Shown in pieces: positions 8,738 to 12,558 of a DNA stretch of 64,000 bases (within the stretch, counting starts at the first letter, position 1; each line of letters starts with the position of its first letter). The position numbers and the translations under genes are program-made. The notes under the pieces were generated by a model. That model saw only the letters and a list, made by a program, of their open reading frames with translations, did no database searches and had not been told where the DNA came from. This DNA comes from a virus, in the IMG/VR virus record IMGVR_UViG_3300044617_000226, positions 1 through 64,000 of that record. One strand, given 5' to 3'.

Positions 8738-11635
8738 TTAAAATTTTCCGTTAGTATTTGCTTTAGGCGGAATGCCTGCTCTGCTTGTGAGCCAACTAAA
8801 CGCTTTTGCGTTCTTTTTGATACTATCAGGCTTCACATCTATAGTTAGTGCTGTTTTGAAGCGCGGATCATTTTTTTCTTTTTTGCTAGGGATATAACCG
8901 CTTGCTTCTACCACACTTTGTTCTTCTATATGAAATACTCTTCTTGCTTTGTCATCTAAATCACTAGGTTTAATAAGTTTAGCAGGTATTGTTTTTGCCT
9001 GAGACTTTATCGCTTTATGTAATCTATGATTGCCATCAAGTATCCAGTCTATCTGACCTTGCTTATCTAACATAACTAAAATGGGGAACTGGTTAGAGAC
9101 TGTTACTTGATTAATTCTTTCTATTTCTTTTGGGTTCCCGTCCCAATGAAGTAGTTTGCTTTTTAGATTATCGTTTATCGGAAGATCAATTTGGTTGATA
9201 TGTTTGGTTAATTCTAAAATATCCTGTAGTGTAACTTCCTCATCGCCGTCTGACCAACTTGTTTCGGCTCCGCCTTCTGCTACATCTTTCTTTATCTTAC
9301 TTAATTCATATATGACCTTGTCTCCCGCATCAGCACGGAAAGCACGGAAACCCCATGCCCTTGCATAACGCTGAACTAATCTATCATATAATGATGCACG
9401 ACTTTCACTATTCTGTTGTTGTTTTGCCCAGTTATCTTTGCTTGCTGAAAAGATTACTCTGTTAGGCTTGTACTTTTTAATGAATGTTTTTAAAGCACTT
9501 AGTACAGTAGCGAACACTCGTTGTGCGTCACCCTCACCTGTAACTTCTTGACTGTTGTTTCTGTAGAATTCAACATTCCATGCTTCTTCTTTTGTTCCTT
9601 GACTAAACCCCTTATTGAACATAATGCTTAGATAGTTACCATCATCCATTTTAGCATATGCGTCAACATCACCGTAATCACTCTTTTCCCACTTAAGTCT
9701 ATAGGGTTGGTCAAATGCTTCATTAACTTGCTGTTGTGCTTTATACCATTCCATAGCAATATCTGATAATTCTCTTGCGCCGAATGTTCTATAGGATTTT
9801 ATTTTATTTTCCAATTCTTGACTGAATGGTTTACCAATGAATGGTTTGAAATCAGGGCCGGCGGCATATTCCTTGCACTTCTGTCTAACTTTACTGCCAT
9901 CTGGATCATACTTTTGCCATATTCTATTGCTGGTCAATTCCATATCTATTTCGTCAAATAGCCACTGGGCAATACGAGCAGGAGTAACTACTTTTGATTC
10001 TTTACGATTAGCAATTGTCTTATGCTGTTTGATTATTCTTGGATCTAATACAACACCTTGTGTTGGCTCATTGTATGCGATCCAGCCATTGCCAGGATCA
10101 AATACGCTAGTAAAGCCTAATTCACGCAATACTTTATTCCAACGGATGATAGTAGTCTCGTCACCTTTGTTTAGCCTACTCAAACAATCATAGATATACC
10201 AATATGGTGTACCATCATAGTCACCATCTTCGTCTGCTTGTTGCATTATTTCAGGAGGACAATATTTACTCAATGCTTGTTTTAGTTTAGCACTATCAAC
10301 TTTGGTCTGCTGTGTCATTTGATTTGAACGGTCATATTGAAACAACTGAATGTAGGGCATGTTATCACCCCACGGCAAAGGTTTATTTCGTTTGATCTCG
10401 CCCAACGCATAATCTAATGGATAGAAATATATGCCCTTAGGTGTATCTTCGCTAACAGCCGGTTGTGGATTGACACCTAACTTAGGCTGACTAGTCATAC
10501 TGATAGCCCAGTTTTCAGGATCACTGATAGTTTTAGCAATAGATAATAATTCTTTCTTGCCAGACTCTTCTTTGACATTTTGTTCTGGATTACTTCTTGC
10601 TTCACCTACATTGTATGTAGGATCAACTTTCTGACGGGGCATTCCTTTAGGTTGCTTTGGATCAACTGGATCGATATCAGTCGTATCTAATCCTGTCTTC
10701 TTCAATGCTTGAATATATTGGTGTTCTAAATCTTCATCGCCGAATGATAATATCGTGCTGGGAGGCCCTTTACCAAAATCATGTTTGCCTAGACCTTTTA
10801 GATTGCTGATATGCTGACCTAACTTATACCAGTCATAGACATCACTAACATCAACTCTAACTGTGCCGGCGGGCATTGTTGGTGGAAACTCTGGCCCCGG
10901 TGGAGGCCCGTTTGGATCATAATCTTCTAAACTTAATTTCTCGCTACGCAATTCGTTTCGTAGGTCCCATAACTTCTGAATCAATCCTTGCTTACGCAAT
11001 GCCTTGAAGGCTAGATTCTCAGGACCAAACTCGCCGGTCTTTTCTAATCCTGCTTTGCGATATCGTTTTATGACATCTAATACTTTATCTACACGCTTGA
11101 GGCTTCGTGATTTGATCGCTAGTTCTAATAACTCGCCTAACTTCTCGTATTTTGCTTTAGTAGCAGATTGATCAAAGTTCGCTCTGCGCTTGACTGGCAT
11201 CTTGATCCAGTCTTTCTTTAATATACTATACTCACCTAAACTATGGTGTGGCTGATTGCTATCTTGAACATATAGTTCTACCGGGACACCATGTACTTTG
11301 ATATCGTGTGTATCATTGTATATGGTCTTTTTAGCATTGAACAGTTCTTTGTACACTTCGTCATCTGGTAGTTTGCTATGATCTACTAATATATGCAAGT
11401 CTAGATCGCTATGCGGAGTATATGAATATGCCGCATTGCTACCTGATATAGTGATGTCTTCTACTTTGAGGCTGCTTAACCCTAGATATGCCATGAAATC
11501 TTTGGCTATATCCATCAATCTCTCATACACTTCGGGATCTAGTTTACCCTTATCAGTCCATAGGGCAGGATTGAGTTTGTCATGAAACTTAACCGCGTCT
11601 GCTAACTTAAAACTCTCAAGTTCTTTAATGTCCAT
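8738..11635 (-). CDS. 965-aa multi-module protein: N-terminal Pol-beta-type nucleotidyltransferase plus further modules including a ParB/Srx-like one
   Basis: ISGSNAAYSYTPHSDLDLH and VELYVQD (GS...DxD...E); ILDGNHRL (ParB-like); modules separated by (V/L)xE-(A/G/D)-type motifs. Confidence 0.8.
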   Translation of the reverse strand: MDIKELESFKLADAVKFHDKLNPALWTDKGKLDPEVYERLMDIAKDFMAYLGLSSLKVEDITISGSNAAYSYTPHSDLDLHILVDHSKLPDDEVYKELFNAKKTIYNDTHDIKVHGVPVELYVQDSNQPHHSLGEYSILKKDWIKMPVKRRANFDQSATKAKYEKLGELLELAIKSRSLKRVDKVLDVIKRYRKAGLEKTGEFGPENLAFKALRKQGLIQKLWDLRNELRSEKLSLEDYDPNGPPPGPEFPPTMPAGTVRVDVSDVYDWYKLGQHISNLKGLGKHDFGKGPPSTILSFGDEDLEHQYIQALKKTGLDTTDIDPVDPKQPKGMPRQKVDPTYNVGEARSNPEQNVKEESGKKELLSIAKTISDPENWAISMTSQPKLGVNPQPAVSEDTPKGIYFYPLDYALGEIKRNKPLPWGDNMPYIQLFQYDRSNQMTQQTKVDSAKLKQALSKYCPPEIMQQADEDGDYDGTPYWYIYDCLSRLNKGDETTIIRWNKVLRELGFTSVFDPGNGWIAYNEPTQGVVLDPRIIKQHKTIANRKESKVVTPARIAQWLFDEIDMELTSNRIWQKYDPDGSKVRQKCKEYAAGPDFKPFIGKPFSQELENKIKSYRTFGARELSDIAMEWYKAQQQVNEAFDQPYRLKWEKSDYGDVDAYAKMDDGNYLSIMFNKGFSQGTKEEAWNVEFYRNNSQEVTGEGDAQRVFATVLSALKTFIKKYKPNRVIFSASKDNWAKQQQNSESRASLYDRLVQRYARAWGFRAFRADAGDKVIYELSKIKKDVAEGGAETSWSDGDEEVTLQDILELTKHINQIDLPINDNLKSKLLHWDGNPKEIERINQVTVSNQFPILVMLDKQGQIDWILDGNHRLHKAIKSQAKTIPAKLIKPSDLDDKARRVFHIEEQSVVEASGYIPSKKEKNDPRFKTALTIDVKPDSIKKNAKAFSWLTSRAGIPPKANTNGKF

Positions 11636-11640
11636 GCAAG

Positions 11641-11648
11641 TATTTAGT
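11641..11648 (-). promoter_or_regulatory. late promoter-like ACTAAATA
   Basis: Directly after the tmRNA terminator and only 5 nt before the ATG at 11635. Confidence 0.6.
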
Positions 11649-11649
11649 T

Positions 11650-11676
11650 AAAAAGAAAGGCCCCGAAAGGCCTTTC
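11650..11676 (-). terminator. rho-independent terminator of the tmRNA transcript
   Basis: GAAAGGCC-TTTCGG-GGCCTTTC followed by TTTTT. Confidence 0.85.
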
Positions 11677-11837
11677 CCGACTATTGGTTACAAGGTTGTC
11701 AACCCCGGCTTAGCCTCAAGCGGCTAGAGCGTATACGCTATCGTTTGCGTTTACTTTGTTTCGCTCTGATTACGTCAGTCGCCTCTCGGATCGTCCATTC
11801 CGTTACTCTTTGCCCTGTCGAAACCAGGTCCGGCCCA

Positions 11838-11912
11838 TCATAAAAGGACTATTGCAAAAACTAATAAAATCACACCTAGACCAAATAACCATTTTACTAT
11901 TTCGTCATTCAT
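11838..11912 (-). CDS. putative 24-aa membrane micropeptide in the tmRNA intervening segment
   Basis: MNDEIVKWLFGLGVILLVFAIVLL*; SD-like AAGGGA 5 nt upstream; stop 1 nt before the tmRNA coding-piece 5' end. Confidence 0.45.
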   Translation of the reverse strand: MNDEIVKWLFGLGVILLVFAIVLL

Positions 11913-11984
11913 ATAATCCCTTTATGGTGGACCGGGCGGGAATCGAACCCGCGTCCAGAACACTTTTCTCTTCACTTCATACGA

Positions 11985-12329
11985 TCATAATTCTTTACAA
12001 GTTCTTTCCTTGTAAATCTTTCCATCTTCAGTAATAATTTCTTTCCATTCAGTGCAAACTTGTCTCTTTTGTTGTTTATCTTCTTTGTCTTTTGCGTTAG
12101 CATCTGCAATAACCGCACCAAGAATAACACCGCCCACTAGTGGTGCAACCCAATTATCATTGTGACGGTGAATTATAACAGGAACATGATGGCGATGCCC
12201 ATGTAAATAGTGATGTCTATGATGATTATGTGAATGGCCATGATGTGCTCCATGACCTCCATGTGCATAGGTTGAAGTAGATGCTAATGCTAACATAAAT
12301 CCCAAGACAGTTGCTAATAATGTTTTCAT
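11985..12329 (-). CDS. secreted/membrane His-rich protein with glycine-zipper-like segment
   Basis: Signal-peptide-like N-term (STYA-H), His-rich stretch, WVAPLVGGVILGAVIA, C-terminal Cys pair; GGAG RBS. Confidence 0.75.
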   Translation of the reverse strand: MKTLLATVLGFMLALASTSTYAHGGHGAHHGHSHNHHRHHYLHGHRHHVPVIIHRHNDNWVAPLVGGVILGAVIADANAKDKEDKQQKRQVCTEWKEIITEDGKIYKERTCKEL

Positions 12330-12390: not shown

Positions 12391-12558
12391 CGCTTCGGCT
12401 TGGATTCGAACCTTGTCCTAGTCTTGTCGATCTGTACTTCCCACAGTACTGACCGAAGCAGTTTTTTCTGGTTTATCTCTAGTACCTGCAGAGTACCTTG
12501 ATCCTTCAACAACACCATCGCTGTGCGACTAACACTACTCCAGAAGGTCGTGCGGCTG
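12391..12558 (-). ncRNA. putative structured ncRNA with a 3' tRNA-like domain (12459-12391)
   Basis: Non-coding gap after TATAAATA; 8-bp stem GCTTCGGT/GCCGAAGC, hairpin GTACT-GTGGGA-AGTAC, T-loop GGTTCGAATCC; no proper anticodon arm, no encoded CCA. Confidence 0.55.

Follow-up and report, generated by a model that had tools for sequence, protein, structure and literature searches.

The spacer between the two pieces of a phage transfer-messenger RNA (tmRNA) probably contains a nested gene for a peptide of 24 residues, acidic at its N-terminus and continuing as a hydrophobic helix to the C-terminus, in which case the tmRNA precursor would also be the messenger of this peptide. The tmRNA gene is found in the IMG/VR virus record IMGVR_UViG_3300044617_000226, whose positions 1 to 64,000 form the stretch analyzed here (64,000 nucleotides, nt; hereafter the window), and the proposal goes back to a reading of the letters of that stretch alone (the sequence-only reading), which had noticed an open reading frame (ORF) filling the spacer and had suggested that it encodes a micropeptide. 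The spacer ORF is now strongly supported as a protein-coding gene under purifying selection at the amino-acid level, as judged by comparison of related sequences, and a piece of a stable RNA that seems to be discarded very probably serves as a messenger as well.

Conservation of the spacer reading frame

Related tmRNAs were gathered by means of the downstream protein, the exact acceptor 3′ strand, a general T-arm pattern and, in metagenomes and viral contigs, the end of the stem that closes the spacer, and the intervening segments (IVs) of this tmRNA type were found to vary widely, both in length (4-218 nt) and in sequence. The ORF of the window belongs among them to a family of 48 loci, in which 34 different ORF sequences encode 31 different peptides; none of the 34 is broken, each has 23-24 codons and ends at the same UGA, and the sole change of length within the family is of one whole codon. 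Every family locus with callable flanks (34/34) lies inside a permuted tmRNA recognized by ARAGORN, and these tmRNAs comprise at least 20 tags and 5 acceptor stems.

Changes were counted over codons 2-20 along the 33 edges of a minimum spanning tree, codons 21-24 being excluded because the last search pattern fixed them. The count gave 139 synonymous and 130 non-synonymous changes for a synonymous-site share of 0.256, that is, a raw ratio of non-synonymous to synonymous change (dN/dS) of 0.32 (binomial P = 6e-20, with the edges counted as independent, which is only approximately true), while the control frames +1 and +2 of the same alignment gave 0.84 and 1.95, and the changes are distributed over codon positions 3, 1 and 2 as 142:83:44. 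Four independent pairs from earlier sets, not chosen by ORF content, gave P = 3e-5. At the level of single residues, Gly11 is written with all of its codons (GGT 17, GGC 12, GGG 3, GGA 1), Asp3 is kept through GAC and GAT, Phe19 through TTT and TTC, and Ala20 through four codons, and at Leu16 five Leu codons are used. Under random substitution at the observed divergence, the ORF would survive in only 0.02-0.05 of trials per distant lineage.

The check that had been set beforehand, conservation of the ORF in relatives together with a dN/dS below 1, thus came out on the side of a gene, and the opposite expectation, that of a chance ORF without conservation in close relatives, does not agree with a family of 48 loci that keeps its frame. 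It is the joint weight of frame conservation and purifying selection that strongly supports a real micropeptide gene in the intervening segment.

We found no database record of the peptide, and neither Pfam nor PHROGs has a family for it or for nine other spacer ORFs; a match to DUF2721 (E = 0.061, 13.7 bits) was rejected, being far under the 28.3-bit cut-off. The back-translated pattern MNDEIVKWLFG gave 0 matches in viral contigs, a pattern too strict for relatives that differ there. A genome scan for beta-type tmRNAs with 60-90-nt spacers returned 43 pattern matches, of which 41 are not tmRNAs, and it picked out one bacterial case, Pelistega europaea, whose spacer of 61 nt is closed by a stem and ends in UGAU but holds no ORF. 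The family ORF also occurs, as MDDLSSLGIGVIVVLVVFALVLL, in a phage-type permuted tmRNA of L247 (CAZCDW010000126.1, 7,585 nt), binned as an uncultured Bifidobacterium metagenome-assembled genome, and L247 is most likely a mis-binned phage contig.

The two-piece tmRNA

The tmRNA is of the circularly permuted (two-piece) kind, of beta type. ARAGORN finds a single gene of the class 'Permuted', and the covariance-model scores are well over their cut-offs (RF04321, 139.8 bits against 47; RF01850, 135.9 bits against 84). The tRNA-like domain is split in such a way that its 3′ half with CCA precedes its 5′ half, and the tag frame lies downstream and ends in ...LAA; direct reading shows the T-arm GGUUCGAUUCC and a CCA encoded at 11925-11927, closing the acceptor piece at 11925. 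The acceptor stem, GGGCCGG/CCGGUCC, has at its third pair the G3:U70 wobble, which is the pair needed for alanine charging. In two-piece tmRNAs as described by Keiler et al. (2000), in the form in which that work is cited in PMC9004378 and PMC11915505, the intervening segment is removed, and on that account the spacer of the window would have to be removed as well, at the making of the 3′ CCA end and the 5′ G end.

In the assembled contigs of four freshwater metatranscriptomes both mature pieces are covered (at a depth of up to 770 in one run) and the interior of the phage's spacer is not, an absence of coverage that proves nothing. Several metatranscriptome contigs begin at 11925, the CCA end, in one study only, and two enter the spacer-like sequence of relatives by 14 and 18 nt, which is below the 31-nt bridging rule and could come from DNA carry-over; none of these metatranscriptome data were used as evidence. 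A separate trait of phage tmRNAs is the presence, in L276, L289, L277, L279, L302, L325 and others, of unusually long tags of 24-31 residues (for example ANADTFDFSAMSFTGNTVSGKSKVALAA and ANAKAITTEAEVMTFTWDLPANESRYALAA), where the usual tags have 10.

Layout of the spacer

The sequence-only reading had described an intervening segment of 88 nt that holds AAGGGA, an ATG and a 24-residue frame stopping 1 nt ahead of the tmRNA 5′ G, with ends that pair, including two G-U pairs, and bury the site resembling a Shine-Dalgarno (SD) sequence. This description stands in nearly all its parts: the length is 88 nt, the elements are all present with the translation exactly as given, and one U (11837) separates the TGA from the mature GGGCCGG; only the bound needs correction, as position 11838, given as the start, is the last base of the stop codon, and the segment starts at 11837 (Table 1).

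Table 1. Positions of the features discussed, in window coordinates unless another locus is named
Feature	Position	Strand	Remarks
Circularly permuted tmRNA, beta type	11625..12017	-	ARAGORN; Rfam RF01850 11652-12034, RF04321 11716-11986
Candidate sigma-70-like promoter, TTTACA-18-AATTAT	11987..12016	-	just upstream of the precursor; weak, a consensus match only (9/12)
Acceptor piece of the precursor	11925..11986	-	ARAGORN 3′ tRNA domain (T-arm, 3′ acceptor strand, CCA) 11925-11963
Intervening segment, 88 nt	11837..11924	-	bounds from ARAGORN domains and Rfam alignment
Closing stem, 5′ strand UAAAGGGAUUAU	11913..11924	-	holds SD-like AAGGGA 11917-11922
ORF of 24 codons and stop, MNDEIVKWLFGLGVILLVFAIVLL	11838..11912	-	ATG 11910-11912, TGA 11838-11840
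Closing stem, 3′ strand AUAGUCCUUUUA	11841..11852	-	codons 21-24 (I-V-L-L); anti-SD mimic
UGAU leader	11837..11840	-	adjoins the mature 5′ G; supplies the ORF stop (UGA)
Coding piece	11650..11836	-	mature 5′ G at 11836
5′ acceptor strand, in the coding piece	11810-11836	-	
Tag reading frame, in the coding piece	11716-11748	-	ANDSVYALAA, then stop
Strong terminator hairpin and U-run	11650-11678	-	lies just ahead of the start of the 965-residue gene
Gene of the 114-residue His-rich protein	11985-12329	-	
Rfam COG2908 RNA cis-regulatory motif	12513-12557	-	59.7 bits against a cut-off of 58.7; borderline
Soluble-looking spacer proteins of 31-71 residues	L183:955-1101(-), L201:412-561(+), L092:7916-8107(-), L202:12655-12867(-), L093:288-380(-)		no Pfam or PHROG family
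Frames of the stemless class	L004:3635-3862, L049:2809-3063, L059:3142-3366, L048:3625-3885, L193:3852-4088, L196:3936-4226	same as tmRNA	also in L129

In the fold predicted by RNAfold, the two strands of the closing stem pair with each other and, with an additional C-G and A-U, form 14 pairs, two of them G-U, and in the fold of the whole precursor this stem of 12-14 base pairs (bp) stacks on the acceptor stem. The IV as a whole has a minimum free energy of -17.4 kcal/mol (z = -2.1 against shuffles), the stem duplex one of -16.6 kcal/mol, and opening the region of the SD and the AUG would cost 9.8 kcal/mol. The SD-like site, which in the window is 4 nt ahead of the ATG, a spacing suited to a ribosome-binding site, has a predicted probability of being unpaired of 0.3-0.6 in nascent transcripts until the last codons have been made, and of 0.00 in the complete RNA.

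The closing stem, which is conserved with covariation, and its 4-base tail belong to the tmRNA type and not to the ORF. Among the 85 distinct related IVs of at least 45 nt, 69 pair at least 10 of their first 14 bases in a single register with 4 nt left over as a tail, as against 0-6 IVs in other registers, and the tail is UGAU in 65 of the 85, with or without an ORF. The ORF stop is thus borrowed from the leader, because the UGAU tail is conserved before the ribonuclease P (RNase P) site (among 24 listed filling ORFs, this UGA is the stop of 16), and the last four codons, which are the 3′ strand of the stem, are therefore dictated by it. The 5′ strand differs between the two kinds of spacer: SD-like strands (GGAG, AGGA, GGGA) accompany the IVs that bear an ORF, and those without one read AAAGCAUA or AAAGUAUA (Fisher P = 7e-5 over clusters at 68% identity, a conservative test because the clustering merged the window family with three ORF-less spacers). 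Most members of the ORF family have the canonical UAAGGAGAUUAGU ahead of the ATG, with GGAG 6-7 nt before it.

The peptide and its possible expression

The peptide begins with acidic residues, followed by a hydrophobic stretch of 17-18 residues that reaches the C-terminus (Kyte-Doolittle 2.95 in the best 17-residue window; range 2.95-3.39), and it is because of this stretch that a membrane location is predicted. Most likely the peptide would cross the host inner membrane once or be embedded in it and act there, and its function would most likely be the modulation of a host membrane protein or a mild perturbation of the membrane. A toxin-, holin-regulator- or exclusion-like role, as the sequence-only reading had suggested, would be a conjecture. 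The peptide was rejected as a holin proper, since it has 24 residues where holins typically have at least 60, and ends in ...FAIVLL, lacking the charged, hydrophilic tail that follows the transmembrane domain in holins; it may nonetheless have some part in regulating lysis. Translation, its timing, membrane insertion and the function of the peptide are inferred.

If the tmRNA precursor doubles as the mRNA of the peptide, its expression could have the following course: (i) the SD (AAGGGA) and the AUG would emerge from the polymerase some 75 nt ahead of their pairing partner, and a ribosome would load in the interval; (ii) this ribosome would read the 24 codons as far as the UGA that the UGAU leader supplies and terminate there, with 1 nt left to the RNase P site; (iii) the last four codons (AUA GUC CUU UUA, the anti-SD mimic), once freed, would pair with the SD strand to form the stem of 12-14 bp on the acceptor stem; (iv) the closed stem would block further initiation and present the tRNA-like domain for processing of its 5′ and 3′ ends; (v) and finally, this end processing would release the spacer as a closed hairpin. 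The output of peptide would be small and tied to the transcription of the tmRNA. The predicted closure of the SD after the last codons fits a short co-transcriptional loading window followed by stem closure and processing, and translation and tRNA-like folding would exclude each other in time, because the 5′ acceptor strand would be covered while a ribosome terminates at the UGA. The competition between translation and tmRNA folding that the sequence-only reading had imagined is thus favored by the geometry, with an SD that lies within the stem and passes from partly open to closed, and a stop just 1 nt short of the RNase P site, in so far as predicted folds can favor it.

A number of considerations weigh against the nested gene and have to be set beside the selection that speaks for it. 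That the spacer is translated at all is something we infer from sequence, and, as the SD is predicted to be fully paired in the folded RNA, translation would need a kinetic window or a helicase-like event. The SD-like AAGGG, moreover, resembles the bacterial beta-type consensus (RF01850 begins the spacer with cAAGggCAUU), and may be in part an ancestral stem sequence and not a dedicated ribosome-binding site. The stem dictates the C-terminal I/L-V-L-L, and a part of the apparent conservation of the peptide is therefore an RNA constraint. To cross the membrane completely, 17-18 hydrophobic residues make a short span. Many related tmRNAs of the same type have no ORF in their spacer, and the peptide is therefore dispensable for tmRNA function; the tree edges behind the count of changes are independent only in approximation; and no relative was found among cultured phages, tblastn of the peptide giving no match and blastn giving T-arm matches only, to tmRNAs or tRNAs of Stenotrophomonas, Xanthomonas, Streptomyces and other phages.

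The spacer as an exchangeable slot

The spacers of related phages are either plain hairpins or carry other small genes. When an ORF is counted as filling if its ATG falls within 20 nt of the IV start and it spans 75% or more of the IV, such ORFs are present in 22 of the 72 distinct IVs of at least 60 nt in our own sample, as against a mean of 6.5 (maximum 14) in dinucleotide shuffles and 2 on the antisense strand. Some of them code for other short hydrophobic peptides (L139, L145, L157, L171, L224, L095), and four ORF families extend 13-39 nt beyond the RNase P site into the mature coding piece, and could be read whole only from the unprocessed precursor, because they cross that site, which would favor translation of the precursor. 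Soluble-looking proteins of 31-71 residues were also observed in spacers (Table 1), two of which, those of L183 and L201, are 50% identical (E = 2e-15).

The contents of the spacer do not follow the tmRNA that surrounds them. L091 has mature parts 96-100% identical to those of L083 and L102, and an IV unrelated to theirs, and it is because near-identical tmRNAs carry unrelated spacers that the spacer can be called an exchangeable slot. The reverse is seen between the window and L086, with IVs 98% identical, acceptor pieces 87% and coding pieces 79%, which points to a recent exchange of this spacer or to a stronger constraint upon it, as far as the sequences can tell.

A second class of spacer, without the stem and without the UGAU tail, was observed in L004, L048, L049, L059, L129, L193 and L196. 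These carry a frame of 76-103 codons whose ATG or GTG lies at the very 5′ end of the precursor, 4-6 nt past a late-promoter-like motif (AATAAATA/ATAAATA), and which reads on through the tRNA-like acceptor piece and all of the spacer and takes in some 20 codons of the coding piece. The frame matches 39 protein clusters with all insertions and deletions in frame, and its best conserved part is the spacer-coded core [WY]YYTENEWSRLGMxGPLPPERNKQLLTNE; a hand count between the spacers of L004 and L049 gave 11 synonymous and 2 non-synonymous changes. AlphaFold2 gave for this protein a mean predicted local distance difference test score of 53, of low confidence, which reaches about 70 only in the spacer-coded core. 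From its sequence, the stemless class looks like a protein gene that overlaps the tmRNA gene on the same strand.

A wider proposal can be formulated from the foregoing, whose truth or falsity we consider evenly balanced: that the excised spacer is a dedicated expression slot gated by structure, in which the SD of the gene and its last codons would together build a stem that limits translation to the nascent precursor, and the enzymes of tRNA processing would retire the messenger. Phages would trade the contents of the slot (membrane peptides, soluble proteins of 49-71 residues) by recombination in the tmRNA flanks, the peptide of the window would be a host-membrane effector dosed by tmRNA transcription, and the sister class would be read in frame with the tRNA-like domain.

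Alternative explanations

An alternative explanation, unlikely in our judgment, is that only the act of translation matters, the spacer ORF being a cis element like a leader peptide that delays or times the formation of the stem and of the tRNA-like domain, with the peptide as a by-product. It would agree with the constancy, across unrelated ORFs, of a start just after the stem and a stop at the UGAU leader, with a stem that sets the last four codons, and with predicted folds in which availability of the SD and formation of the stem are mutually exclusive. However, a timing device would not call for the selection observed at the amino-acid level, with a raw dN/dS of about one third and Asp3, Gly11, Phe19 and Ala20 held through synonymous change, nor for unrelated ORFs in other spacers that are again short hydrophobic helices; and there are many functional-looking tmRNAs of the same type without an ORF, and processing therefore does not need translation.

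It is very unlikely that the ORF is untranslated and that the spacer has been conserved as RNA, either as a processing hairpin or as a stable excised small RNA, the frame being a by-product of U-rich structured sequence. The stem and the UGAU tail are generic, with or without ORFs, the bacterial consensus has a start similar to the SD-like one, the fold of the IV is somewhat more stable than those of its shuffles, and the spacer shared by the window and L086 is more alike than the mature parts around it, all of which an RNA element would explain. Structure, however, predicts neither the three-nucleotide periodicity of the changes nor an excess of synonymous change in one frame only, and it leaves without explanation the variety of four codons at an invariant Gly and a frame that persists through 34 distinct sequences, in which the only indel is of one whole codon; besides, the families do not share a conserved structure in the interior of the hairpin.

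Slighter still is the probability of a selfish mobile cassette, whose ORF would promote its own spread or retention, for instance as a toxic peptide of the addiction type, since the exchange of spacers among near-identical tmRNAs, the same spacer in diverged tmRNAs, and a size, hydrophobicity and sequestered SD like those of type I toxins and their mRNAs have against them that no antisense antitoxin, nuclease or recombinase is apparent, that 24 residues cannot encode an enzyme, that homologous recombination in the conserved tmRNA flanks explains the exchange, and that a family kept across at least 20 tmRNA backbones under purifying selection fits a benefit to the phage equally well.

The phage and the neighboring genes

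The full record has 78,988 nt and an estimated completeness of 23% (CheckV). The phage is taken to be a jumbo phage because the contigs of relatives, found through the neighboring 965-residue protein, reach 364 kb. Its DNA is present in 20 public runs over 17 studies, labeled as freshwater, lake-water or plankton metagenomes.

On the other side of the tmRNA lies the gene of a protein of 114 residues, which begins much like a signal peptide and includes a stretch very rich in His, HGGHGAHHGHSHNHHRHHYLHGHRHH. The stop codon of this gene is next to base 1 of the tmRNA precursor, and the promoter-like hexamers overlap its 3′ end. The borderline COG2908 motif is located between a radical-SAM gene and this His-rich protein gene.

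Implications

If the spacer is translated, it would be a compact case of one transcript that is at once a messenger and the precursor of a stable RNA, with an off-switch built in, because the 3′ end of the gene is the anti-SD of its own start, and it would offer a concrete case for the dosing of small membrane peptides during infection. Because annotation takes these spacers to be non-coding and gene callers presumably pass over such short ORFs, a whole set of selected phage micro-genes would be invisible in it at present. The spacers of tmRNAs would be a new place in which to seek phage effectors. As regards the evolution of tmRNA genes, the spacer would appear as a hot spot of recombination which, between the window and L086, is nonetheless better conserved than the mature tmRNA that surrounds it. 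Should the slot proposal be true, it would be a previously undescribed nesting of protein genes in a stable-RNA gene.

Comparison with known systems

Two-piece tmRNA genes are common in aquatic phages (PMC9004378, PMC11915505), and 53 unique ones have been counted among cultured phages, mostly aquatic (PMC9004378). Those of the OM43 phage Melnitz and of the pelagimyophages (PMC9004378; Rfam RF04321/RF01850, PMC11915505) have the same order of acceptor piece, spacer and coding piece, the same G3:U70, an encoded CCA and a ...ALAA tag. In both of these papers, however, the intervening sequence is treated as non-coding, whereas here the spacer would be a selected peptide gene with its SD locked in a stem. 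As contents of spacers, the tmRNA database paper names a tRNA-Ala gene in one case and a repetitive element in another, and no ORF (PMC11915505); a study of the Sinorhizobium small proteome concerns the tmRNA tag only, and full-text literature searches found no description of ORFs in tmRNA spacers.

The closest analogue, by its arrangement, is the S23p ORF in the intervening sequence (IVS) of the 23S rRNA of Coxiella burnetii (PMC4990558), which is likewise an ORF in a stem-closed segment excised from the precursor of a stable RNA, in a horizontally acquired element. In Coxiella, the S23p ORF is reported to be undergoing reductive evolution and apparently not to be synthesized in vivo, and the IVS is excised by RNase III and its RNA rapidly degraded (PMC4990558); in contrast, the ORF of the phage tmRNA shows clear purifying selection and comes with an SD, and its ends would be made by tRNA-type processing. 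The spacer was considered as a member of the S23p IVS group, whose members lie in helix 45 or 25 of 23S rRNA, and rejected, its host RNA being a tmRNA and its peptide belonging to no Pfam or PHROGs family, and the likeness is one of analogy only.

Type I toxins and related small hydrophobic peptides (Ibs, ShoB, TisB, Hok) have 19-50 residues, and their ribosome-binding site is hidden by an intramolecular helix, so that the folded RNA is translationally inert. The spacer ORF resembles them in the small size and hydrophobicity of its peptide and in an SD predicted to be hidden in a helix, and differs from them in being nested in a tmRNA precursor and not standing alone, and in being borne by a phage and not by a chromosome or plasmid. 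The promoter-like hexamers of the plus strand (12010-12038) lie outside the spacer and read away from it, and the spacer peptide is not filed as a member of the type I toxin-antitoxin systems.

Among RNAs with a double function, RNAIII of Staphylococcus encodes the delta-haemolysin of 26 residues, and SgrS encodes SgrT. Here too one transcript is both a functional RNA and the messenger of a very small peptide that acts on, or associates with, membranes, but in RNAIII and SgrS the coding part stays in the mature RNA, whereas in the phage it would be in the excised part of a ribosome-rescue RNA. Finally, the promoter-stem-loop (PeSL) cassettes of T4-type phages (PMC2839356, PMC4122927) also hold small uncharacterized genes between conserved structured repeats and are swapped among close genomes; in the spacers, however, the bounding homology is that of the tmRNA gene and the closing stem, and not that of promoter and terminator motifs, and the slot would be inside an RNA gene.

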